32,502 nt of DNA from a virus (lineage: Duplodnaviria > Heunggongvirae > Uroviricota > Caudoviricetes), in IMG/VR virus record IMGVR_UViG_2636415833_000004; one strand, given 5' to 3'. A program made the position numbers and the translations under genes. Of this stretch, positions 16,653 to 30,945 are shown piece by piece (the stretch's first letter is position 1; the number at the start of each line of letters is the position of its first letter). The notes beneath the pieces were generated by a model. The model worked only from the letters and a program-made list of their open reading frames with translations. It had not been told where the DNA came from and did no database searches.

Positions 16653-17645
16653 TTACTTAATAGTTACCGCAGCTTCATCGATCGCGGCGTACAGCGCGGG
16701 AATTTCCAGCGCATAGCCCTGCATACGCCACCAGGATGACTCGAACGCCTTACGGTCACCGACGTGCTTCGCCTCACGGCGCTGCGTGCCGGTTTGCGTA
16801 TAGCAATGCAGGTTTTTAGGGATAGTCACGGCAATGCGTTTGCCCGGGAAAAACGGTGGCGTGACATGACGGCGACCGGCGATTGATTTCAACATCGGCG
16901 TAAAGGCGGCTTTTTCGGTCGGCTTATCGGTCTGGTTTGCCATGCGCAGCTGTTCAGCGGCAATCAGATCAGAACCGGCCAGCACCGTTAATTGTGGGTG
17001 TTCACGGAATTGCGCTGGCAGCATCGCGATCACATCCAGCGCCGCAGCGTCCAGGGTTAAATAATCCCCGCCAGCGCCGATCGACACGGCTGCGGTGAGA
17101 ACGTGAGAACCGTTGTCGTATTCCTTAGAAATCTGATGCCAGCCCTTGTTAACATCTTCGCCGTTCGGGTTCGCCACCGGATCGGTATTTTCGGCAAAAC
17201 TTTTACCATTAAAGCCGATGCGCAGGATGTCCAGCGCGAAGGATTCGTTTGCAAACTCAGTGACGAGTTTAAAGAACTCACCAGGCGTCCCGGAATTCGC
17301 CCAGACAGCCAAAAGCGCCCACTTCAGGCGCGCGCAGGAATCCGTTTCGCGCAATTCGTATTCATTGCCATCAACGCCCAGATCGACGCCAAATCGCCCA
17401 TCTTTTTTACGTCCAGTTAAAAGTTTAGAAACGCCAGCTTCAACAACCGCGCCTTTAATCTGGTTAACCGACAGCATAGAAATTTCTTTCAGAAATGCCG
17501 TTGAATCCAGCAACGCTTTACGCAGTTTAATTTCCTGCGGCTGGCTGATAGTGAACATATGTTTCGTGGTGGCGACGCTATACGCTTTCGCCAGCGTCAC
17601 CGCGTACTGGTTAATAAGCTTTTCAGCTTCCGGGGTAAGAATCAT
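16653..17645 (-). CDS. N: major capsid protein, P2 gpN-like
   Basis: 330 aa; segment SIGAGGDYLTLDAAALD matches remembered P2 gpN (VGKGGDYASLDALVMD); between scaffold and terminase small subunit. Confidence 0.8.
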   Translation of the reverse strand: MILTPEAEKLINQYAVTLAKAYSVATTKHMFTISQPQEIKLRKALLDSTAFLKEISMLSVNQIKGAVVEAGVSKLLTGRKKDGRFGVDLGVDGNEYELRETDSCARLKWALLAVWANSGTPGEFFKLVTEFANESFALDILRIGFNGKSFAENTDPVANPNGEDVNKGWHQISKEYDNGSHVLTAAVSIGAGGDYLTLDAAALDVIAMLPAQFREHPQLTVLAGSDLIAAEQLRMANQTDKPTEKAAFTPMLKSIAGRRHVTPPFFPGKRIAVTIPKNLHCYTQTGTQRREAKHVGDRKAFESSWWRMQGYALEIPALYAAIDEAAVTIK

Positions 17646-17681
17646 TTATTTATTCCTGATAATTTTAATTAACACCCGGCT

Positions 17682-18527
17682 TTACACCAGATATTCCGGC
17701 ACGCCCTGCGCAGGTTCGCCGTTCGGCTGTTCCGTCGCTTCACCAGACAGCGCAGTAAATTTTTGAAGTAGCTGATCAACCTTGCCATCAAGCGCGGTGA
17801 ATTGCTCCACGGTCACGACTTGCGGCTGATCGCCTTCCAGACCGTTTTGATTATTTTCAATAACAGTCGTGTTTTGTTTTGCGCTGAATGATTTAATTTC
17901 ATCTACGGCGGTCCCCATTTTTTCCACAGCGGTATTAAACACGCTCATTAATTGCGTGAATTGCTGTTCATTCATTTTGTCGTCTTCCTGGTTATTGTCT
18001 GGATCGCGCGCGCCCTGTTCAGGTGACTGCGGCAGACGCGAAAACAGGCGGGTTAAAAAAGATTCTTTGTCTGCAACTTCGGTCATCGGTTCGCCACTGC
18101 AAAAACTGATAACATTCGGCGCGCCGGAAAATTCGAGACGATCGGTCCCGGTACTGGCGGGCAAATCGGTAACGGCAATCCCCGCAAGGTAATGCTTTCC
18201 GGTACTGGCGAAATTTTCCAGAATTTCTACTGATGGAAATAGCTTTTGCTGATCATCACGGTTTAACGACATCATCCATTTATTAGGCAAGAAACGCGCA
18301 TATAACTTAACTTTGCCGTTAACCGTTTCGCACTTAACACTATGAACAGTGCCGAGGTTGTACCATTTTTGATGGCGGTCAACGCTTGACGGCCAAATCA
18401 TGGCCGTATACTCCGCCGCGTTATAAGTTTCCGCAGCTTCCGTCAGCCATTGTTCTTTTATTTCCCGCCCGTCTACAGTCGGGCCAGCAGTGGCAACACA
18501 AAACCACGCGGTGGGTGTTTGTTTCAT
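17682..18527 (-). CDS. O: capsid scaffolding protein, P2 gpO-like
   Basis: 281 aa; TVDGREI and TGKHYLAGIAVTDLPAS match remembered gpO motifs (TCDGRVI, TGKCYLVGLAVTDDPAS); first gene of minus-strand late operon. Confidence 0.8.
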   Translation of the reverse strand: MKQTPTAWFCVATAGPTVDGREIKEQWLTEAAETYNAAEYTAMIWPSSVDRHQKWYNLGTVHSVKCETVNGKVKLYARFLPNKWMMSLNRDDQQKLFPSVEILENFASTGKHYLAGIAVTDLPASTGTDRLEFSGAPNVISFCSGEPMTEVADKESFLTRLFSRLPQSPEQGARDPDNNQEDDKMNEQQFTQLMSVFNTAVEKMGTAVDEIKSFSAKQNTTVIENNQNGLEGDQPQVVTVEQFTALDGKVDQLLQKFTALSGEATEQPNGEPAQGVPEYLV

Positions 18528-18679
18528 AAGTTACCCTCATTTCGATAAAGTAAAGTAAAACACCCAGCCGTTTTATTTTCATGCCGTTAATTTCTGACTA
18601 TTTCGGATATAAGCCGTTATCAGAATTAAAGCGAATATAGACCGGATACCCGACGTTTTTTAAATGCAAAAATCCCCTC
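18528..18679. promoter_or_regulatory. divergent late promoter region between O and P operons
   Basis: 152-bp AT-rich intergenic region; three GCCGTT direct repeats (about 18567, 18583, 18613); no TGT-N12-ACA dyad seen. Confidence 0.4.
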
Positions 18680-20449
18680 ATGAAATATTCAGACGAATTA
18701 AGGGGAATGGCGAAAGCCCTTTATTTAAAGGGACTCACCCCGAAAGAAATCGCCGCCCAGTTAAATCTGCCATCTGCGCGGATCATTTATCACTGGGCTG
18801 ATGTGGGTGAATGGCGCGACCAGATGAAGGTCGTAAACATTGAAGACGCGATCGCGCGCCGCATTGCCCTGCTGACTGACCGGGAAAAGAAAACACCTGG
18901 AGAACTGGACGAACTGGACCGCCTGATCGGCCATCACGTCAAACTGCTGACATCCAGAAATAAGCACGCTGAAAGGATGGCGGAAATAGACGCTCGCGGA
19001 CCCGGCAACACACCGCGCGCAGCCGCCGCAGATGACTGCGACAACCCACGTCAGAAGAAGCGGCGGGCAAACGACGTCAGCCACCTGACCGCAGCGGACT
19101 TTGAACACTTTATTTCTACCCTGTTCGGCTACCAGCAGCGACTGCATGAGAACTTAAGCCAGAAGATCCGCAATATCCTTAAAAGCCGTCAGATCGGCGC
19201 GACATACTATTTTGCATTTGAAGCGTTCGAAAACGCGACGCTGACCGGCGACCCTCAAATTTTCTTATCCGCCAGTAAGCGCCAGTCTGAGGTTTTCCGG
19301 TCATACATCGTCAATATCGCTTTGCAGGAATTCGGCGTTACGCTGAAAGGCAACCCGATCAAACTGAACACCGCGCACGGCATCGCAGAACTGCATTTTC
19401 TGGCGACCAACAGCAACACCGCGCAGTCGAATTCAGGTCACGTTTATATTGATGAATATTTCTGGATACCGAAATTTAATCGCCTTAATGACGTTGCGTC
19501 AGCGATGGCGACCCATGACAGATGGCGTTTAACGTACTTTTCCACACCGTCCGCTAAAACGCATGAGGCTTACCCGTTCTGGACCGGTGAAACATGGAAA
19601 GGCGGCAATAAAAAGCGCCGGGCGGCAGTCTTCCCGACGTTTGACGAAATGCGCGACGGCGGGCGACTTTGCCCGGATAAACAATGGCGGTACGTCATCA
19701 CCCTGGAAGATGCGATCGCGGGCGGCTTCAATCTGGCCAACATTGACGACTTGCGCGATCGCTACAGTGAAACCGCTTTTGCCATGCTGTTTATGTGCCA
19801 GTTTGTGGACGACAAAAACAGCGTGTTCAGGTTTTCCGACGTGGTGCGCTGCGGTGTGGAAACCAGCAAATGGAAGGATTACCACCCCGACAGCGCGTGC
19901 CCGTATAACGGGGAAGTGTGGGGCGGGTTCGACCCGGCGCGAACCGGCGACAACGCAACGTTTGTCATTGTTGCCATTCCATCCACCCTGGCCGAAATGT
20001 TCCGCGTTCTGGAAAAGTACCACTGGCGCGGTTTGTCGTTTCAGTACATGGCGGACCAGATAGAAAAGCTGTTCAGGCAGTTCAATATGACGTTTATCGG
20101 CGTTGACGTGACCGGCATCGGCTACGGCGTGTTTGAACTGATCCAGAACTTCGCCCGCCGCCAGGCAGTGGCAATCCGCTACAACGTCGAAACAAAAACC
20201 CAGCTTGTACTGAAAATGATAGACGTCATCGAAAACCAGCGGATCGAATGGGACGCCCAGGAAAAGGACATTGCAGCGTCATTTATGAGCGTCAAAAAGG
20301 CGACCACGCAGAGCGGCGACAACCTGACGTTCATTGCAGACCGCAGCGCAGAGCACGGTCACGCCGATGTTTTCTTTGCAATCGCTCACGCGCTCTTTAA
20401 TGAGCCGTTGAACTGGAAAAATAAACGTAAATCAACATGGGCCGTATAA
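18680..20449 (+). CDS. P: terminase large (ATPase) subunit, P2 gpP-like
   Basis: 589 aa, ATG start, divergent from O as in P2; immediately followed by portal gene. Confidence 0.85.
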   Translation: MKYSDELRGMAKALYLKGLTPKEIAAQLNLPSARIIYHWADVGEWRDQMKVVNIEDAIARRIALLTDREKKTPGELDELDRLIGHHVKLLTSRNKHAERMAEIDARGPGNTPRAAAADDCDNPRQKKRRANDVSHLTAADFEHFISTLFGYQQRLHENLSQKIRNILKSRQIGATYYFAFEAFENATLTGDPQIFLSASKRQSEVFRSYIVNIALQEFGVTLKGNPIKLNTAHGIAELHFLATNSNTAQSNSGHVYIDEYFWIPKFNRLNDVASAMATHDRWRLTYFSTPSAKTHEAYPFWTGETWKGGNKKRRAAVFPTFDEMRDGGRLCPDKQWRYVITLEDAIAGGFNLANIDDLRDRYSETAFAMLFMCQFVDDKNSVFRFSDVVRCGVETSKWKDYHPDSACPYNGEVWGGFDPARTGDNATFVIVAIPSTLAEMFRVLEKYHWRGLSFQYMADQIEKLFRQFNMTFIGVDVTGIGYGVFELIQNFARRQAVAIRYNVETKTQLVLKMIDVIENQRIEWDAQEKDIAASFMSVKKATTQSGDNLTFIADRSAEHGHADVFFAIAHALFNEPLNWKNKRKSTWAV

Positions 20450-21484
20450 ATGGCAAAACGTAAAAAACAACAACCAGCCCCGGCCCTCGCGCCAGCTATT
20501 CAAAAACAGATGTCTTTTAGCGTGGAATTCGGCGACGCCGAGCGCGTGCCGTGCCTGGGTTCATATGATGGCGTAACAGATGAAGGAGACGGCTACTGGA
20601 CGCCGCCCATTGACCGGGAAGCGCTGGCAAAATTGCCCGACATCGCAACGTACCACGGCGCATGTCTGGGGGCGCGCGCGAAAATGGTCGCGGCGGGTTT
20701 TCTTCGCGGCGGCGGTCTGACGCCTGAAACCGCCCTGGCGCTGGCCGTTAACTTCGTGACGTTCGGTGACGTGGCGCTGTTAAAGATCCGCAACGGCTTC
20801 GGGCAGGTCGTGCGCCTGTACCCGCTGCCGTCTGTTTATGTGCGGCGTTCCACTGACGGCAAAACAAAATTATTGTTACGCGACGGCGAATATAAAGAAT
20901 ATGCCGCAAAAGATATTATTTTTATCCGTCAGTACGATACGTTGCAGCAGATTTACGGAAAACCGGATTATTTAGGCGGCATCCAGTCGGCGATGTTAAA
21001 TAGTGACGCGACCATGTTTCGCCGCAAATATTATCGTAATGGGGCGCATTTAGGTTATATCCTGTATGCCACCGATCCGGATTTATCACCAGAAATGGAA
21101 AAGGCCATTTCTGAAAAAATAGAACAGTCAAAAGGCGCGGGTAATTTCCGCAGTATGTTTATTAACATCCCCAACGGTAAACCAGACGGCGTTAAAATTA
21201 TCCCTGTGGGTGATGTCGCAACAAAAGATGAATATGTGAATATCAAGCGCATATCCGCACAGGACCAGTTAACCGCCCATCGCTTCCCGCCTGGCCTTGC
21301 GGGCATTATTCCGGATAACGTGGGCGGACTGGGCGACCCGTTAAAAGTCCGTGCCGTATATCAATTAGATGAAGTCTGGCCCATGCAGGCGCTAATTGAG
21401 AATGCAATCAATAGTGATTCTGAAATTACCCGCGCAATGCAGGTGTTATTCAAAAAACCGAAAGCGATAGAGGATGAAAAATAA
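20450..21484 (+). CDS. Q: portal protein, P2 gpQ-like
   Basis: 344 aa (same length as P2 gpQ); FRRKYYRNGAHLGYILYATD matches remembered P2 Q segment FRRKYYENGAHAGYIMYVTD. Confidence 0.85.
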   Translation: MAKRKKQQPAPALAPAIQKQMSFSVEFGDAERVPCLGSYDGVTDEGDGYWTPPIDREALAKLPDIATYHGACLGARAKMVAAGFLRGGGLTPETALALAVNFVTFGDVALLKIRNGFGQVVRLYPLPSVYVRRSTDGKTKLLLRDGEYKEYAAKDIIFIRQYDTLQQIYGKPDYLGGIQSAMLNSDATMFRRKYYRNGAHLGYILYATDPDLSPEMEKAISEKIEQSKGAGNFRSMFINIPNGKPDGVKIIPVGDVATKDEYVNIKRISAQDQLTAHRFPPGLAGIIPDNVGGLGDPLKVRAVYQLDEVWPMQALIENAINSDSEITRAMQVLFKKPKAIEDEK

Positions 21485-21798
21485 TGGCTAAACGGTTAAA
21501 ATATACCCCGCTCAAAAATAGATTAAGGGGAAACAAATTGCGCAGCCCGAAAATTATCTGTCCGGAATGCAACGGCAATTCAACGATCAAAAAGACCGTG
21601 CGGAAACATCCCCATCTATCAGATGTTTATTGCGCCTGTAATAACGTTGAGTGCGGTCATACTTTCGTCGTTAATATAACATTTTCTCACACATTAAGCC
21701 CCAGCGCGCTTTCATCTGACCGCGCTATCAAAACGCTGATCGATATGATGTCGCCAGAACAAAAACAAAAAACATTATACCTGTTGTTACCAAGCTAA
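21484..21798 (+). CDS. ogr: Ogr/Delta-family zinc-finger late transcription activator
   Basis: CPEC...YCACNNVECGHTF matches the Ogr C-x2-C ... C-x4-C zinc finger (YHQCQNVNCSATF in P2); ATG overlaps Q stop (TAATG); alternative TTG start at 21538 with AAGGGG upstream. Confidence 0.65.
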   Translation: MAKRLKYTPLKNRLRGNKLRSPKIICPECNGNSTIKKTVRKHPHLSDVYCACNNVECGHTFVVNITFSHTLSPSALSSDRAIKTLIDMMSPEQKQKTLYLLLPS

Positions 21799-21830
21799 AA
21801 AAAGGGCAGATTTGAACTGCCCATTATCTT
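21797..21830 (-). terminator. rho-independent terminator between convergent ogr-like and cargo genes, strongest on minus strand
   Basis: GGGCAG (21804..21809) / CTGCCC (21817..21822) stem with 7-nt loop; A7 on plus strand gives U7 on minus strand directly after the hairpin. Confidence 0.65.
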
Positions 21831-23151
21831 ATTCAGTCCCCTTTTCCATCTGCTGTGGCTTATCTGCAACTACAGAGGGTTTAGCCTTACGATCAAGGAT
21901 ATTTTTAACATAGTTTACATTATCAATCGAAGAATCAAGAAATTTAGAAAAAGCTTTAGAGTTTAACATTTCCATCCATGGTGTTGAGTGATCATCACCT
22001 TGGACAAATCTTAATGGGGCTTCCTCTAGACGGGTTAAAGCAGAATCAAACAACCGAGTAGCGAATGTTCCATCATCAAGTTGCGATGCTTCTTTTCTGT
22101 AACCCTCATATGCTTTTGCAACGGCAGACTTAAAGGCATAATCTTCTGCTAGCTTAAATCTTTGATTAATTTGCTTTGTAGACAACCACGCAAACCAAAG
22201 CGGCGCGCCGATACTAAATATGGATAGTATTAATTGCGTTGCAATCACTATTGCACTGGTATCTGGTTGCGCTAAAACATTGGATAATGCTTTTAACCTT
22301 TCATAACCAACAAACCCACCGGCAATTAATGCCGCAGATAATCCTGCTACCCATAAACGAATGCTACAGTTTAACTTATTCGCTTTGATCTCAAAAGCTC
22401 CCGCTAACCCTTTTGAAGTCGAAGCACGAATAGCTTCCTCACATTTCGAAAGATAATTTTCTGCGATCTCTTTTTTTGCATTTAACTCTTCTTTTATCTT
22501 TTCCCCTTCGTTTAGACAAACATCCATTAAGACATTCGAATGAGATGCTTCTTCTTTTGCCTTTAAAATGTACTCTTTTATTTCCGTTAATTCTGCCTTG
22601 TATTTATTTAACTCTTCCATATATACCGGTAGATTATCAGCTGCGGCATATGCATCGTTAATCAATTTAATTTTACCTTCCAGTGTTTCAATTTCTGGAG
22701 TAGCTTGTCTTACTCTTGCATCCATACTCCGTATTTTACGTGCTAATTTCTGAGGTACGGCATCCGTATCCTGGAGTCGGTCGAAGGAAATCAAAGAATC
22801 TAAAAATGAAGATATATATGTCATGGTCATTAAAAATGAAGGAATCGCTTGTACACCATTTCCATTATAAAAGCTAGGAGCAAGGTCAGAATGTACCTTT
22901 GTTACGACTTTTCTTACATAGTCGAGTTCATCTAGTTCGAAATCAGTTAATTTAAGCATCTCTAATTTTTTTGACTTCTCGATCATTCTTTCAATATAGT
23001 CAGAAAAGTCTTTTGGCAACATTACAGGATGACCGATGCCAAATGCTTCTATAAGCCATTTATTTTTATGCCCATATGATTTTTCAGACTCATCAAAATA
23101 ATCTTTTAATTTATCTAGAGCATTTATAAATTCATTTAACTCAGCGTACAT
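21829..23151 (-). CDS. hypothetical coiled-coil / two-transmembrane-helix protein; candidate accessory (defence or exclusion) gene
   Basis: 440 aa, ATG with GAGGT 5 nt upstream; visibly AT-rich; coiled-coil N-terminal half, two hydrophobic helices (aa ~265-283 and ~299-323), ~115-aa C-terminal domain; no similarity recognised to phage core proteins. Confidence 0.75.
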   Translation of the reverse strand: MYAELNEFINALDKLKDYFDESEKSYGHKNKWLIEAFGIGHPVMLPKDFSDYIERMIEKSKKLEMLKLTDFELDELDYVRKVVTKVHSDLAPSFYNGNGVQAIPSFLMTMTYISSFLDSLISFDRLQDTDAVPQKLARKIRSMDARVRQATPEIETLEGKIKLINDAYAAADNLPVYMEELNKYKAELTEIKEYILKAKEEASHSNVLMDVCLNEGEKIKEELNAKKEIAENYLSKCEEAIRASTSKGLAGAFEIKANKLNCSIRLWVAGLSAALIAGGFVGYERLKALSNVLAQPDTSAIVIATQLILSIFSIGAPLWFAWLSTKQINQRFKLAEDYAFKSAVAKAYEGYRKEASQLDDGTFATRLFDSALTRLEEAPLRFVQGDDHSTPWMEMLNSKAFSKFLDSSIDNVNYVKNILDRKAKPSVVADKPQQMEKGTE

Positions 23152-23321
23152 ATTTTACCTCAAGCCATTTTATATTTTATACTTGCAGAACAAATATAAG
23201 CCTAAATTAATAATATACCTTCCATTGCTGACAATAATAAACCATGCATCAATTCCGCTGATATTACCAAATCTGCTTGAGTAAATCGCCTATAACTTCT
23301 CTCCTAAAATAACATTAACAT
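23152..23321 (-). promoter_or_regulatory. AT-rich promoter region upstream of the cargo gene
   Basis: 170-bp AT-rich intergenic region; minus strand carries tandem TATAAAAT -10-like motifs shortly upstream of the SD. Confidence 0.35.
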
Positions 23322-25886
23322 TCATACGGTTACCACAGCCCGCCAGCGCGCCATCAGTTCCACAGTTTGTTTTTTCGCCAGCACACGCCGCCACGGCTGG
23401 AACGTGTCAATCAGGATCAGTTCGCCGGTGTTCATGTTAGCCCGGTAAACGTTGTCAATAACTGTCGCCTGTCCGCCTTGCGCCAGTGCCAGCGATTGCG
23501 CGCGGCCCAGCGGTATTTTGCGCAATTTCGCCCACTCCATGACGCGCGCGGCCAGTTCTGCCGCTGCAGCCGTGACCGGTTTTTCAGTCTCGCGAATGAC
23601 CGCCGCCGCACGTAAATAATTTTCTGCGCGCAGCTGGTCCGCGCCCGAACAGTCCGCCGTCGCTAATTGATTCGCCAGCGCTTCGAACTCGTCAGCAGCC
23701 GATTGTTTACGCTGTTTTTTGTGCGTCAGACACTCAGCGCGCAGGCGTTTGCGTTGTTCCCGTGTCAATTTGCCGATCAGAACCTGTTCGGGATCTCCCG
23801 GTGGCGGCGCACCGCTGTTTTTCTCTCCCAAAAAGTCCGCTTCACTGTTTATATTTTGTTCATCTTTTGCTGTTTTTTCATGCTCCGTACAGTTATTGAC
23901 ACGAGTCCTAGCGGGCGCAGACGCGCCCTTAAGGTCAAAAGATGAACAGCCATCACCGGGGCGCTCCGCGCTCTCCGGCGATTTTTTAACAATGCGAAAA
24001 TCCCGCAACCTGGTTATTACCGGCGGGATATTAATCAGCGGCATAAATACACCGCGGATAACCGTCAGATATTCGCCCCAGCTGTTAGGCTCCGGTTTAT
24101 CCTGATAAAACGTGCGCAACGGTAAATCCGCGCGTTTTGCCAGCGGTCCGCCCATGAGATTAACAAACCCGCCCCAATCCCCCGCGTCCGCTGCGGCGTG
24201 GATCTCGGCAAACAGCGGATTAATCTGATCAGCGGCCTGTTGATTCCCCAGCCTCCGCAGTTCGCGGTACACCGACACCGGCACACCGCCCAAAAACTGG
24301 AACTGCCTGATCCCCCACGTAGACGCCCACGCGGTCGCATGTTGCGCCGTGTCTTTCAGTGGACGTCCGCTTTCGTCGTCGCGCTCATTATCCAGCGCGT
24401 AACCGTCGATATTTTTAGAGACGTATTTGACGATATAGCCCGTAGCGGTTCCCCGCTCGGGATCAATCGGTTTGAAATCGAAACGCGGCTGTATGCCGTG
24501 TTTCGTCGTTAATTCGTCGGCGTCCTCAGCTGTTGCGTAACGCTGCATGACGTCGCGTAGCGCCTCCTGATGCTCCGGCAGAGTGAATAACAGGCCGTGC
24601 CAGTGCGGCGTTGCGTCGTGATGCGCCTCGGCTACACGTAAGCCAAAAGCGCCGATTTCCTGGCGCGCCAGCTCGGCGCGGATACGCTGCCAAATGGTAT
24701 TCAGGTATTTTTGAGACTCGCGCGGGCTAGCGCCTTGCCACTTAGGATTACGATGACCAAACGCGGTAAACGCGTGATATTTTGACGGCGCGGTAATAGT
24801 AAAAAAGCTGCCGACAAATCCCTGCTCATTGGCTACTCGCTCAAAACCGCCGATTCGCGTCATAAGCTCGGTGCGGCGTATCGCTGGATTGGACGCGCTT
24901 TTTTCTATCTGCTCCAGCAGTGAAAAACGCTCGCCTGATTCAACGTCTTCTATTTCCAGTCTTGACATGATGTCGCGATTACGCTCGCGACGCTCCCGCC
25001 ACGCATTCACGCGTTCTTTACTACAATAGGTTGACACGCTGCGGCGCACGTCGCCCAGGGAGATCCGCAAATGCTCCCGCCAGCGCACGGCGTAACGCAG
25101 TAAATTGCGGTTCCAGTAGCGCGCGTCGATCATTTTGCTGATCGCTGCCGCCAGCTCGTCGGGCAACAAGCGTTTTTTGTTTGCCCTTGCCGCCGTGACG
25201 TGAAAAACGTTAGCCAACGTTTTCAATTCAGCGTAAAACCGCCGGCCAGTTTCGATTTCGTCCAGGTGTTCACAATCTGCGGCAATTTCTGCCAGTGTGG
25301 CGTTTGCGTAAATTGCGACGTCCTGCGCCAGTAATTCAACATCCTCCGGCGAATAATCAGGCAGTGTGTCGAAACGACGGATCAGATCGGTGAGTTGTTC
25401 AAAATTGTGATAGAGCGGCTCAAGGCCAACAAACGGCGTTTCATAAACCCGCCCAGCATTGCGGGGCGGGCTTATGGAATACTGCTGCATAACGGCGGAA
25501 ATGTGGATTAATTCGCGGCTGGCGATATCTCGCAGCGCCAGCGCCGCGACGTGTCGCCCCTGCTTTTCGTGAGAACGTTCAACGCGCGCCATCATGCGGC
25601 GGCGGATGAATGTCGGATATGGCTGAAAAGTGGATTTTACACGCTGCCAGAATTCGTATTCTGCGGCGAACTCCTGCGGATCATGTTTCGGCGTCCGGTC
25701 AACGCTAATTGCTGCGCGCGGGGCGTTCCACGCGTATGGATACAGTGTAGTGTCTGCGCCGCTCCCCAGGAACGGGGGCGGCGGTGTTGGGGCGTAGCGT
25801 CCGCGCGTCAATTGATAGACGCCAGCCACAGAGCAGCGAATGGATCGATTTCGTTGTAATAGGCGGTCATAAATCCGCCTCTTCAA
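23322..25886 (-). CDS. A: replication initiation protein, P2 gpA-like (rolling-circle HUH endonuclease); true start uncertain
   Basis: YAWNAPR near N-terminus, TPHWHGLLF (HUH) and YIVKYVSKNIDGYALD (active-site Tyr) match remembered P2 A motifs; track start 25886 is TTG, an internal GTG near 25829 fits the P2 alignment. Confidence 0.85.
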   Translation of the reverse strand: MKRRIYDRLLQRNRSIRCSVAGVYQLTRGRYAPTPPPPFLGSGADTTLYPYAWNAPRAAISVDRTPKHDPQEFAAEYEFWQRVKSTFQPYPTFIRRRMMARVERSHEKQGRHVAALALRDIASRELIHISAVMQQYSISPPRNAGRVYETPFVGLEPLYHNFEQLTDLIRRFDTLPDYSPEDVELLAQDVAIYANATLAEIAADCEHLDEIETGRRFYAELKTLANVFHVTAARANKKRLLPDELAAAISKMIDARYWNRNLLRYAVRWREHLRISLGDVRRSVSTYCSKERVNAWRERRERNRDIMSRLEIEDVESGERFSLLEQIEKSASNPAIRRTELMTRIGGFERVANEQGFVGSFFTITAPSKYHAFTAFGHRNPKWQGASPRESQKYLNTIWQRIRAELARQEIGAFGLRVAEAHHDATPHWHGLLFTLPEHQEALRDVMQRYATAEDADELTTKHGIQPRFDFKPIDPERGTATGYIVKYVSKNIDGYALDNERDDESGRPLKDTAQHATAWASTWGIRQFQFLGGVPVSVYRELRRLGNQQAADQINPLFAEIHAAADAGDWGGFVNLMGGPLAKRADLPLRTFYQDKPEPNSWGEYLTVIRGVFMPLINIPPVITRLRDFRIVKKSPESAERPGDGCSSFDLKGASAPARTRVNNCTEHEKTAKDEQNINSEADFLGEKNSGAPPPGDPEQVLIGKLTREQRKRLRAECLTHKKQRKQSAADEFEALANQLATADCSGADQLRAENYLRAAAVIRETEKPVTAAAAELAARVMEWAKLRKIPLGRAQSLALAQGGQATVIDNVYRANMNTGELILIDTFQPWRRVLAKKQTVELMARWRAVVTV

Positions 25887-26271
25887 TCATGCGGTAAGCG
25901 ATCGCGTAAAATACGGGCGAATGAGGGTGCGCGGTAAAAAGCTCTTCAAGAAAGTCAGGGTAAATACTCAGTTTAAGCAGATCACCTCTTGTCAGACCCC
26001 AATTAATAAGCACATAGCTATACACAAATAACAGATCAAAACTCAGCAAAACATCGCCAGTCCCCGTCTTATAAACATCAGTAATCACCCCGGCGACACA
26101 AGCCCCTGTCGCCGTTGGCGGATTCTTTCCTGTATCGTCAAAAACAAACTCACGGATAAATAAAAAATCTTCTTTTATATAATCCCCCTCATTTAACAGC
26201 ACCGCGCGTCTTTCGCGTTTTAACACTGGCTGAAAATAATCCGGCTGAATCGCTACTATGTGAATTGTCAT
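25867..26271 (-). CDS. hypothetical early-operon protein
   Basis: 134 aa, ATG start ATGA-coupled to upstream ORF, directly upstream of A. Confidence 0.5.
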   Translation of the reverse strand: MTIHIVAIQPDYFQPVLKRERRAVLLNEGDYIKEDFLFIREFVFDDTGKNPPTATGACVAGVITDVYKTGTGDVLLSFDLLFVYSYVLINWGLTRGDLLKLSIYPDFLEELFTAHPHSPVFYAIAYRMIEEADL

Positions 26272-26465
26272 TCCGCACCCCTCAAATCAATATTGTCACC
26301 GGGTAAAACTCTAATTGCCTGATATCGCGTGGAACGCGTGATCTGTTCATTGCGGTAAAACCCGTCAATAAACACTTCGGCATCAATTAAATACTGCTCA
26401 TTCTTTTTTATTTCCCATATGTCAAATACACGGGTAATGACGGCGGGCGCACTAGTCCTGGTCAT
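26268..26465 (-). CDS. hypothetical small protein
   Basis: Track start 26561 is GTG inside the dam C-terminal region; ATG at 26465 gives 65 aa with a 14-nt overlap to dam stop. Confidence 0.35.
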   Translation of the reverse strand: MTRTSAPAVITRVFDIWEIKKNEQYLIDAEVFIDGFYRNEQITRSTRYQAIRVLPGDNIDLRGAE

Positions 26466-27468
26466 AGAATTCACTCCCCGCGCTCGCACAAAGATCGACA
26501 CTGTCACAAGCTCCGCAGCCGCCATCAGGGCAACCCCAAACCGTGCGGCGTTGGGTGTCACAACTACACGGACGGCCAGTAATCAGACGACCCCCGCAAT
26601 ATTCACAATGTGGGATATATCCGATCACTTCTTTTGCAGTCGCGCGTTTGCTGGTATTGGCACTGACTGACCGTTGAACATTAATTTCCTGAAATGTAAA
26701 CGACACGTATATTTCTCGCGCGGCGGGTGTGTCGCTGTTTGAAATAACAACTTTTGCAGCACCACGCGCACTTATTTCTAATAATTTCTGAACTAAGCGG
26801 CAGTGATCGTCCCGCGTAAATCTCTGTCCGTAATACGTGGTAAAGTCTGCGGTTTCGCTGGCGGGTAAATATGGCGGATCGCAGTAAATAACGAGATTAG
26901 GCCCGAATGTCAGCATTGATAATGTGTCATCAAAATTAAGATTGAGAAACACTGCGTTTGTATCATTCGCCTTTTCTGCAAACCGCCGGATCTCCTCTTC
27001 GGGAAAATACGGCGCTGTCTTATGTTGACCAAACGGAACATTGTATTCCAGTTTATTGTTATAGCGGCAAACGCCGTTATAACCGTGCCGATTCAAATAG
27101 AGAAACCGCGCCGACTGCATTAACGACAATCTCAGTGATAAGGGGCGGCGACCGCATTCGTGGTAACTTGTATTTAGTTCGTTAAATTCTTTGCGAATCT
27201 TTAAATAATATTCTTTTGAATTACCTTCTTTAAATAATTCCCGTGCAACGTCAATAAATAGATTAGTGCGATGCTTCACGTTTTCATACGTATTTATCAG
27301 ATCTGAATTAATATCAGCTAAAACATACTTATCATAACTTGTGTTTAAAAATACCGAACCGCCGCCAACAAATGGTTCCATCAGACAATAACCCTTTGGC
27401 AAGTGCGGCAGCAGCTCAGGCAAAGCGCGAGTTTTTCCACCTGCCCACTTCAAAAACGGTCTGATCAT
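26452..27468 (-). CDS. dam: DNA adenine methyltransferase (Dam-like, N6-adenine) with C-terminal Cys-rich extension
   Basis: N-terminal FLKWAGGKTR (AdoMet motif I) and DPPY catalytic motif; about 60 extra C-terminal residues with CEYCGG...CSCD...CPDGGCGACD. Confidence 0.8.
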   Translation of the reverse strand: MIRPFLKWAGGKTRALPELLPHLPKGYCLMEPFVGGGSVFLNTSYDKYVLADINSDLINTYENVKHRTNLFIDVARELFKEGNSKEYYLKIRKEFNELNTSYHECGRRPLSLRLSLMQSARFLYLNRHGYNGVCRYNNKLEYNVPFGQHKTAPYFPEEEIRRFAEKANDTNAVFLNLNFDDTLSMLTFGPNLVIYCDPPYLPASETADFTTYYGQRFTRDDHCRLVQKLLEISARGAAKVVISNSDTPAAREIYVSFTFQEINVQRSVSANTSKRATAKEVIGYIPHCEYCGGRLITGRPCSCDTQRRTVWGCPDGGCGACDSVDLCASAGSEFYDQD

Positions 27469-27686
27469 TTTTTATATTCCTTGTTATATCGTTCGTGAGT
27501 TAATAAAGTCCATTGCTGGCCGTCGTTTTTACTCAGTAACCGCCAACATCTGCCGATTGCAATTGACAGATAACCAGTCGCCAGCCGCCGCACTTTATCG
27601 CGGCGACCCTGTCGGAATTCATTAATTAAATTGTGTGCCTGATCAACAACGCAGGCGGGGCAATTATCATTTTTCCGGCGAATCAT
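27465..27686 (-). CDS. hypothetical small protein with CxxC motif
   Basis: 73 aa, ATG start, ATGA-coupled to dam. Confidence 0.4.
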   Translation of the reverse strand: MIRRKNDNCPACVVDQAHNLINEFRQGRRDKVRRLATGYLSIAIGRCWRLLSKNDGQQWTLLTHERYNKEYKK

Positions 27687-30074: not shown

Positions 30075-30524
30075 ATGTCAAAAGATAATGATACATTTAT
30101 ACCCCCAATACGCCCACCTCGTAATTCCCGCTATGAAGAACCATCACCAGAACTTATGAAAAGGCTACAACAAGTTACCCCTGAATTATTCGCTGAATTT
30201 TTGATGTCAAAAAACGCCGCTCAGTTCTGCATATCATGTGGATTTACTAAATTAACAATGTCCGAAAACGGAGTTTATAACGGTGCAAAGACTCCCGAAA
30301 ACTATGACTCTTTATCGCAAATCGATCAGGAGAAATTCGCAGCTGATAATACTCTCTGGTATGTAACGCCCGTGTTTGTGAATACTCATACAAAAATAAG
30401 ATTAGCCGATGTCGAATATAAAATTAATTGCCCAAACTGCGGGCATATCAGCATTTATCGCGCCCGCCCGGTCGTCGCATGGATAGAAGAGAATCGCAAG
30501 GAATGCAAAAATGAGTCAGACTAA
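30075..30524 (+). CDS. hypothetical zinc-ribbon protein (two CxxC pairs)
   Basis: 149 aa, ATG with AAGGAAA SD; Cys52/Cys55 (CISC) and Cys119/Cys122 (CPNC); inserted between the two C-type repressor genes. Confidence 0.55.
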   Translation: MSKDNDTFIPPIRPPRNSRYEEPSPELMKRLQQVTPELFAEFLMSKNAAQFCISCGFTKLTMSENGVYNGAKTPENYDSLSQIDQEKFAADNTLWYVTPVFVNTHTKIRLADVEYKINCPNCGHISIYRARPVVAWIEENRKECKNESD

Positions 30525-30945
30525 GGATAATGTTCATCATATAAGAGAACGTCAGGTACCCATAAATAATGAGTCCACAAACAGTAGTGACGACGGAGGC
30601 AACGGCATGAACAGCCTAATAAAACGCGTTGAAAAACTGGAAGACAATACCGGTGTAATTGTTAAAGAACTTACCCATCTCAACGCGCGCGCTGATGACT
30701 TCGCCTCAAAGGGCGATCTGCGTGAACTCAAGGCGCAGATAACTGGGGATATGAAAGAACTCCGTGCGCAGATGACCGGAGATATGCGCGAGCTTAAGGC
30801 ACAGATTAGCGGCGAACTCAAAGAGTCCAGGTCCGCAACCAGGGAAGATCTTGCAAAGGGATTACATAAGCAAATGATATGGCTATGCTCTGCCCTTTTC
30901 GCTACAGCAGGAGTCATAATCGCTTTGGTAAAAGATCTGTTCTAA
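30511..30945 (+). CDS. hypothetical coiled-coil protein with 11-residue repeats and C-terminal transmembrane anchor
   Basis: 144 aa; repeats GDLRELKAQIT / GDMKELRAQMT / GDMRELKAQIS; hydrophobic C-terminal helix MIWLCSALFATAGVIIALV; overlaps upstream gene by 14 nt. Confidence 0.55.
   Translation: MSQTKDNVHHIRERQVPINNESTNSSDDGGNGMNSLIKRVEKLEDNTGVIVKELTHLNARADDFASKGDLRELKAQITGDMKELRAQMTGDMRELKAQISGELKESRSATREDLAKGLHKQMIWLCSALFATAGVIIALVKDLF

Follow-up and report, generated by a model that had tools for sequence, protein, structure and literature searches.

We analysed a window of 32,502 nucleotides of viral DNA (IMG/VR record IMGVR_UViG_2636415833_000004, class Caudoviricetes), whose source is a P2-related prophage of Escherichia coli / E. 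albertii, and we find that a 440-residue open reading frame (ORF) on its minus strand, ORF440, is a single-gene, AT-rich, swappable cargo at the hotspot between the replication gene gpA and the portal gene. The best explanation for ORF440 is that it is a self-contained, horizontally mobile accessory gene, which the prophage carries at the hotspot as a means of competing with other phages. We put the probability that it serves some anti-phage function at about 0.6. The narrower proposal that it is a one-protein sensor-effector, which would bring about abortive infection through the membrane, is tentative and falls somewhat short of an even chance.

ORF440 lies between the gpA and portal genes of a P2-like phage, with P2-type scaffold, capsid and terminase genes beyond, in the following arrangement:

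20450-21484, plus strand: portal gene (PF04860)
21484..21798, plus strand: gene for an Ogr/Delta-like zinc-finger late activator, the left boundary gene (Pfam PF04606, 5.9e-13)
21756..23330, no strand assigned: swappable cargo cassette of ~1.6 kb (blastn against prophage L002)
21829..23151, minus strand: ORF440, a 440-residue predicted inner-membrane protein of the phrog_34659 family (stop codon 21829-21831)
23322..25886, minus strand: replication endonuclease gene gpA, the right boundary gene, upstream of ORF440 and on the same strand (PF05840, 6e-98)

The Ogr-like gene is interposed between the portal gene and ORF440; it follows the portal gene directly, overlapping its stop codon, and its last ~43 nucleotides (nt) fall within the variable cassette. 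The extent of the cassette is defined by comparison with prophage L002 of E. coli S1-KEN-03-A: in blastn, homology of ~94.5% stops at 21755 and restarts at 23331, and the content between these positions is unrelated in this sister prophage, so the cassette is 21756-23330. The same slot in L002 holds an insert of 1532 bp with a HEPN protein gene and sfsB. Eight complete E. coli genomes carry the cassette flanks; ORF440 is present in one of them, and the other seven (flanks ~93% identical) have an unrelated insert with sfsB, in which a HEPN-domain protein is annotated in six of the seven. An earlier note on this DNA, made from the sequence alone, had proposed that ORF440 is variable cargo in the A-to-Q interval, and the comparison of this interval across relatives bears it out, with prophages 93-95% identical in the flanks carrying HEPN and SfsB genes in its place; the cassette limits are also nearly those that the note had given. 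The note had also described the interval as a known cargo position, and the gpA-gpQ interval of P2-like phages is indeed documented as a reservoir of defence systems and as a hotspot of diversity, for which 1,650 gene arrangements are described and 169 systems were curated (Rousset et al. 2022, PMC9122126).

The alternative cargo itself (L002 4445-5730) consists of a gene for a 259-residue HEPN-domain protein, convergent with the ogr-like gene, and a divergent gene for an SfsB/Ner-like DNA-binding protein; it occurs in E. coli S1-KEN-03-A and in five more annotated genomes, where it replaces window positions 21756-23330, and is probably another defence cassette.

In composition ORF440 stands apart from both flanks, as the earlier note had observed. 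Its GC content is 0.362, compared to 0.56 for gpA, 0.51 for the portal gene and 0.50 for the whole window, and its GC content at third codon positions (GC3) is 0.28, versus 0.60 for gpA; it is the lowest-GC stretch in the whole window. The expression signals described in the same note are likewise present, and are located as follows:

21797..21822, minus strand: intrinsic-terminator-like hairpin and T7 (GGGCAG-ttcaaat-CTGCCC, then T7)
23152..23321, minus strand: AT-rich upstream intergenic region of ORF440, GC 0.29

The GC-rich hairpin has a 6-bp stem with 5 G-C pairs and a 7-nt loop, begins 6 nt past the ORF440 stop codon and, with its T7 tract, runs from 21822 to 21797 (21822..21797). Upstream, a GAGGT Shine-Dalgarno sequence (23161..23157) is found 5 nt ahead of the ATG, preceded by overlapping tandem TATAAAATATAAAAT at 23181..23167 (tandem TATAAAAT motifs, 23167-23181). 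The assignment of the ATG start is supported by the conservation of M1 and the N-terminus across homologs. Relative to the copy in E. coli N1420 (97.8% identical DNA), the ratio of replacement to synonymous substitution rates (dN/dS) of ORF440 is 0.116; seven of the eight replacements are within residues 1-235 (all at or before residue 229) and the eighth is at residue 439, while 12 of the 18 synonymous changes are in residues 252-397. This ratio, together with more than 1300 homologs, argues that ORF440 is more than a chance reading frame, and by these measures it is a real gene under purifying selection. The exact protein has been deposited as ‘hypothetical protein’ in many assemblies.

The gene also turns up as a target of natural E. 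coli type I-E CRISPR arrays, in which three spacers match ORF440 perfectly (32/32). The protospacers, at window positions 21886-21917, 22075-22106 and 22615-22646, are on the coding strand and each follows an ATG protospacer-adjacent motif; the arrays are those of strains Combat11I9, AMSHJX01, F1267 and about a dozen others. Further spacers of the AMSHJX01 array match the related N1420 prophage, perfectly in its terminase and portal genes and over 28/32 nt in its capsid gene. We rejected the idea that CRISPR is aimed specifically at ORF440, because the same array targets the terminase, capsid and portal of the N1420-type phage; the spacers thus record immunity against the phage lineage rather than against ORF440 itself.

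If ORF440 were a core phage gene, with a part in lysis timing, membrane anchoring of replication or morphogenesis, we would expect it to be retained among close relatives. Its position is compatible with such a role: the gene is directly downstream of gpA on the same strand, and no terminator-like site was found between the two, so ORF440 may be co-transcribed with the early genes. However, it is absent from closely related, otherwise collinear prophages, its GC3 is foreign to the phage backbone, and its homologs occupy non-phage loci in 80 genomes. The phage moreover has its own holin and endolysin elsewhere; ORF440 does not fit a holin or lysis-cassette protein, with the PF04550 holin and M15 endolysin genes ~9 kb away near 12.0-12.7 kb and with ORF440 itself, at 440 residues, sited with the early genes, unlike a small late-operon holin. 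The earlier note had recognised no structural, lysis or replication homolog, and scans of Pfam, PHROG and NCBIfam matched none either. A core function is therefore most improbable, the least credible of the explanations that we considered.

ORF440 belongs to a large family that has no name. It has no match among Pfam, NCBIfam or PADLOC models, and a profile search of PDB sequences returned only coiled-coil noise (best match syntaxin, E 0.0085). It does match phrog_34659 strongly (E 4.6e-135; residues 33-428 align with positions 29-417 of a 433-position profile) and, less strongly, phrog_30912 (E 4e-13); both are annotated ‘unknown function’, so that membership gives no mechanism. We found 1369 matches in a 90%-clustered database and, in a 50%-clustered library, 1304 representatives at E<=1e-3, of which 625 pass 1e-10 and 415 pass 1e-30; the typical length is about 410-490 residues. 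The best 150 of the 1304 representatives are 384-489 residues long, save for a few shorter and likely partial entries; all but two of them have one matched stretch, and none is a domain fusion. Pfam had no match for the seven longest or most divergent members, and its only matches among 50 members were to families of coiled coils, for example FapA, EzrA and Snapin. The family extends over Gamma-, Beta- and Alphaproteobacteria, Bacteroidota, Leptospira and Verrucomicrobia, with identity of about 30-40% from Enterobacteria to Bacteroidota and Leptospira, and E. coli alone has at least four subfamilies (431, 433, 440 and 463 residues).

We examined the genomic settings of the family in 43 viral-contig loci that are non-identical to the window and in 80 genomes with 123 immediate neighbour genes. 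The homolog is AT-richer than its surroundings at 73 of 78 genomic loci (mean difference -8.7 points, Wilcoxon p 2e-13) and at all 43 viral loci, and no conserved partner gene was found in the 43 viral or 80 genomic loci. At 14 of the 43 viral loci the homolog is next to the portal gene, convergent with it and downstream of gpA (13 directly, and one, L012, across one small ORF); further small variable genes often lie in between at the portal-adjacent loci. In E. coli RS571, a 433-residue paralog is found between the tail-fibre assembly and sheath genes, at the Z/fun site, which is the second defence-enriched locus of P2 (Vassallo et al., PMC9519451). Other carriers include the lambdoid-type Providencia phage PSTCR8lys, a P2-like prophage on a Klebsiella plasmid (463-residue paralog), an integrated inovirus (RstA-like, Zot) that lies within a few kb of DarT on a Vibrio plasmid and has the homolog at its end, a site beside an integrase and an Abi-family gene on a V. 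parahaemolyticus plasmid (a distant homolog), and an E. coli tRNA-Asn integrase islet with another paralog; one paralog adjoins the adhesin gene yeeJ. The commonest Pfam families among the 123 neighbours are integrases (5) and resolvases (2), with two genes each of the Gabija/OLD-like, NERD-UvrD and ResIII types. This distribution is that of a mobile, stand-alone conflict gene.

Within the family, the 433-residue paralog cluster of E. coli and Shigella sonnei (P0027, P0135, P0136; L019 6001-7229) is mostly split: fragments of 216 and 174 residues are found in 333 and 322 contigs, versus at most 133 contigs for each intact variant. This pattern suggests frequent inactivation of the paralog, through cost, autoimmunity or relaxed selection.

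The protein combines a variable N-terminal region with a conserved membrane and C-terminal module, in the following parts:

22447..23151, minus strand: N-terminal region, residues 1-235, presumed cytoplasmic and variable (from conservation)
21952..22446, minus strand: conserved core module, residues 236-400, made up of a juxtamembrane helix (TSKGLAGAF), a transmembrane (TM) hairpin and a cytoplasmic domain
22300..22368, minus strand: TM helix 1, residues 262-284 (from hydropathy)
22183..22260, minus strand: TM helix 2, residues 298-323 (from hydropathy)

The two hydrophobic segments (residues 262-284 and 298-323, DNA 22183..22368), which the earlier note had reported along with a C-terminal domain, reach Kyte-Doolittle 19-residue means of up to 1.63 and 2.03. 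The description of the N-terminal half as a long coiled coil needs to be narrowed. Family-averaged hydrophobicity has significant 3.5-residue periodicity only in residues 1-28 and about 141-238 (z 3.9-7.6); the heptad-periodic helices of residues 141-238 (DNA 22438-22731) are interrupted by conserved prolines, and residues 29-130 instead carry the conserved non-heptad motifs HP and NGNGxQAIP. Conservation over residues 1-235 is 0.19-0.46, except for an island at residues 161-180. It is highest at residues 321-380 (0.76-0.90) and lowest at residues 201-220 and in the C-terminal tail.

The conserved module has distinctive features on either side of the hairpin and within it. TM1 contains a small-xxx-small zipper (G270-x3-A274-x3-G278-x3-G282) together with W267, L271 and L275; among 392 sequences, glycine occupies position 270 in 83% and position 282 in 96%, A/S occupies 274 in 93%, G/A occupies 278 in 94%, and W267 and L275 are found in 99% and 100%, respectively. 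TM2 has one conserved polar face (Q/H/N306, S310, S313) and ends in an interfacial motif, G315-A-P317-L-W319-F-A-W322, followed by L-S/A-T-K-Q; both the zipper and the polar face are conserved across the 392 sequences. Beyond TM2, two independent alignments agree on the invariant residues K326, Q327, R331, E336, D337, Y338, K341, Y348, E349, G350 and Y351, and further on E354, R366, R374, E376, E377, P379 and R381. The conserved cytoplasmic part past the hairpin comprises ~75 residues of a C-terminal cytoplasmic portion of ~115, and its charged and aromatic segment may be a gating, binding or catalytic site. The loop between TM1 and TM2, by comparison, is 16 residues long in 87% of members and weakly conserved. 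Because ORF440 has an N-terminus of ~260 residues without a signal peptide, and because lysine plus arginine counts (2.9 in the N-flank, 1.75 in the loop and 2.9 in the C-flank) follow the positive-inside rule, we infer an N-in/C-in topology in which both large domains would be cytoplasmic.

A distant relative separates the two parts of the protein. A 431-residue Vibrio homolog aligns with the family profile at 98.5% probability in hhalign, only over residues 221-398, and its N-terminal 250 residues have no detectable similarity to the family, even at the profile level; thus, a fixed membrane and C-terminal module is joined to an N-terminus that diverges freely. Two structural approaches were set aside: the single-sequence structure model of ORF440 had a pLDDT of 43 and a pTM of 0.24 and was not used for a fold search, and mean-field direct coupling analysis (392 sequences, effective number about 250) was dominated by indel-edge artefacts, so that contact information was not taken from it.

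If ORF440 does abort infection, this anatomy suggests how it might act. The variable N-terminal helical region would sense, or be restrained by, a cytoplasmic cue of infection. Upon activation, hairpins would associate through the glycine/alanine zipper of TM1, the Gln/Ser face of TM2 would line a leak, and collapse of the membrane potential would abort the infection before any new phage is produced; gating or nucleation of the assembly would fall to the C-terminal segment with its invariant charged and aromatic residues. We consider it possible, although less likely than this general scheme, that the juxtamembrane helix, the glycine-zipper hairpin and the segment K-Q-x3-R...EDYxFK...YEGY...R-x7-R-x-EE-x-P-x-R, which make up the conserved module, form a membrane-effector domain that has not been described before, has no relation to SLATT and is fused to a fast-evolving cytoplasmic sensor, which would make it a one-protein immune system common to tailed and filamentous phages, plasmids and islands across several phyla.

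The same predicted topology bears on whether ORF440 might instead exclude competitors without killing the cell, by blocking genome entry or a membrane step of incoming phages or mobile elements in the manner of P22 SieA/SieB, T4 Imm or HK97 gp15. Such non-lethal exclusion would suit a predicted inner-membrane protein that prophages keep among their cargo, in a stand-alone gene that has a terminator of its own, and inovirus and plasmid carriers would gain from shutting out competitors. However, the only predicted periplasmic part is the poorly conserved 16-residue loop, which leaves little to touch an incoming tail or tape-measure protein, and the conserved sequence lies entirely within the membrane or the cytoplasm. 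Moreover, known superinfection exclusion (Sie) proteins are lineage-restricted, whereas the ORF440 family spans Enterobacteria to Bacteroidota and Leptospira at the identities given above, and there is no similarity to SieB. We regard exclusion as unlikely, and favour abortive infection over classical entry exclusion because the short loop argues against periplasmic contact with incoming virions, although a block acting at the cytoplasmic face is also possible.

The earlier note had raised, as a speculation, a SLATT-like two-TM module, and we examined the related proposal that ORF440 is a divergent SLATT-type effector of the kind found in cyclic-oligonucleotide-based anti-phage signalling systems (CBASS), retrons or TIR systems, with its partner lost or never shown. 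In favour of this proposal, the two-TM hairpin continues into a helical cytoplasmic extension, and the setting is one of mobile elements and defence. Nevertheless, no SLATT_1-6 or DUF4231 match was obtained for ORF440 (E<=1), its C-terminal half (E<=10) or 50 members (E<=1), in searches of hidden Markov models (HMMs) versus sequence, which are insensitive to very remote homology. P4 Gop is SLATT_4-like by HHpred (PMC9122126 Table S3), and the family profile aligned with it in hhalign at a probability of 0.7%, a weak test with one single-sequence comparator. No signal-generating partner gene accompanies ORF440; SMODS cyclase, reverse transcriptase, TIR and SLOG are not in the 25 commonest Pfam families of the 123 immediate neighbours, and an N-terminal extension of 260 residues is atypical. 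The SLATT suggestion is therefore not supported, and a divergent SLATT effector is very unlikely.

Several observations weigh against an anti-phage function, or against the membrane-leak mechanism that we propose for it. ORF440 has no similarity to known defence proteins (PADLOC) or to SieB, AbiC or Gop. Known defence genes are only a few of the 123 immediate neighbours in the 80 genomes; the association with chromosomal defence islands is weak, and no background comparison stands behind the figure. The P2 hotspot also holds partition systems, in about one quarter of phages, and the cdt toxin, and of eight P2-hotspot systems that were newly tested, only three gave protection against the phages that the authors used (PMC9122126). 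The TM hairpin might do no more than anchor the protein, and the many invariant charged residues that follow TM2 point to a specific function in binding or catalysis, for which a simple pore model has no need. Finally, a consensus scan found no sigma-70-like site on the minus strand of the 170-bp region upstream of ORF440. Since no such site is found there and no terminator follows gpA, read-through transcription from the early operon is possible and a promoter of its own, while plausible, is unproven.

The most substantial alternative is that ORF440 is an accessory membrane ‘moron’ gene that acts outside phage defence, in host physiology (stress tolerance, envelope, virulence) or in maintenance of the element. 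Non-defence cargo is a serious rival, because the hotspot holds partition and toxin genes, because only three of eight tested P2 systems were defensive and because the association with chromosomal defence genes is weak. The chromosomal neighbours are mostly non-defence genes, one paralog is beside yeeJ, and the very frequent splitting of the 433-residue paralog implies that its loss is tolerated. On the other hand, the family recurs in phages of unrelated types and at two sites that specialise in cargo against phages, its combination of a fixed, effector-like module with a hypervariable N-terminus is typical of conflict genes, and its distribution across phyla is patchy, AT-rich and mobile. 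We thus consider a role outside defence doubtful, and retain competition with other phages as the best explanation.

The remainder of the prophage provides the setting for this cargo. In IMG/VR the window corresponds to contig UViG_3300028969_000137. The identical prophage was read in six places; in five of these the integrase gene is beside chromosomal mipA, and in the remaining one (L004) the integrase gene is cut at the locus edge. Two late genes complete the arrangement given above:

17682-18527, minus strand: scaffold gene (from local gene order)
18680-20449, plus strand: large terminase gene (from local gene order)

The late genes (scaffold, terminase and portal; window 17400-21800) are 73-80% identical to the prophage of E. 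coli N1420 (L001), while ORF440, gpA and the early genes (window 21800-27500) are 95-98% identical to it, which places a sharp mosaic junction at the boundary of the cargo and the ogr-like gene. Given these identities, the cargo travels with the early, replication module. In P2 itself, ogr lies near attP, the phage attachment site. The tail genes are of the HP1/DUF2586 type, and no P2 cos 19-mer was found in the window, even allowing 3 mismatches; the prophage is of a P2/HP1-like hybrid lineage.

Other genes in the window may also have accessory functions. Two overlapping ORFs on the plus strand, one of 149 residues with weak zinc-ribbon matches (30075-30524) and the other of 144 residues, helical or coiled-coil (30511-30945), lie in a low-GC stretch (0.40-0.41) that separates the repressor region from the integrase; Pfam and PADLOC models match neither of them, and the pair may be a second uncharacterised cargo locus. 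In the early operon, an orphan Dam-like adenine methyltransferase is encoded at 26452-27468 on the minus strand (PADLOC oMTase, 1.8e-91), and identical prophage copies have a 73-residue ParE-like ORF (PF24732) at about 27465-27686, minus strand, adjoining a 3'-5' exonuclease. These two may have anti-restriction or addiction functions.

If ORF440 is a defence gene, it represents an unnamed, phylum-spanning family of single-gene defences, with at least 415 clusters at 50% identity (E<=1e-30), that Pfam, NCBIfam and PADLOC have overlooked entirely. ORF440 would then join the few systems in which one protein is both sensor and membrane effector, and would be a compact model of how a cytoplasmic cue is converted to membrane damage. 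Being short (1.3 kb) and self-contained, and found in E. coli together with its native regulatory region, the gene is easily testable. A positive result would be unsurprising, in that unknown genes of the P2/P4 hotspots are numerous (the family is one of 169 catalogued systems) and many prove defensive.

Comparison with known systems begins with PADLOC-DB v2.0.0 (5027 models), in which ORF440 has no significant match; we rejected the best matches, LmuB and a type I methyltransferase (E 8e-4) and ZorA (0.025), as coiled-coil noise from the heptad-rich residues 5-245. The family is nonetheless already catalogued, though never studied. System #102 of the P2 hotspot is a single gene without Pfam match, described as ‘2 TM’, with 32 occurrences (Rousset et al. 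2022, Table S5B, PMC9122126). It belongs to the same family as ORF440 (54% identity over 373 residues, E 9e-147) and shares the gpA-gpQ type of locus, the single-gene organisation and the two TM helices, but it is of a different subfamily. Thus, the newness of ORF440 stands in so far as there is no named family, and is qualified by a 54%-identical homolog that had been listed before. The motif of system #102 is absent from the table of tested systems in that paper, no paper on the family was found by searching the literature with the family motif and accessions, and the motif is absent from the supplements of a 2026 preprint on P2/P4 hotspots. Another ‘2 TM’ system of the P2 hotspot, #96, has no similarity to the family in hhalign.

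The cargo genes of P2 itself, tin/old and those at Z/fun, occupy the same two positions as the ORF440 family; like it, they are not essential to the phage and vary from one relative to the next. They are unrelated to ORF440 in sequence, however, and the Old models of PADLOC do not match. Neither Old, a nuclease of the ATPase-TOPRIM type, nor Tin, which is soluble, is a membrane protein. SLATT and other two-TM effectors (CBASS, retron, TIR, Gop-beta-cII) resemble ORF440 in having a two-helix hairpin as the presumed killing module and in being carried at P2/P4 hotspots, but differ in that no HMM or profile similarity was found, and ORF440 would act, if at all, without a partner enzyme and has ~260 N-terminal and ~115 C-terminal cytoplasmic residues. 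With respect to SieB of lambdoid phages, AbiZ of lactococci and AbiC, ORF440 has 2-3 times the size, its hairpin lies in the middle of the protein instead of at one end, and no Abi model of PADLOC matches; comparison in hhalign gave 0.5% for SieB, for which Pfam also has no match, and less than 1% for a putative AbiC. Despite these differences, all are stand-alone two-TM proteins, encoded by prophages or plasmids, that are placed at the membrane, and it is this group that we propose as the working model for ORF440.

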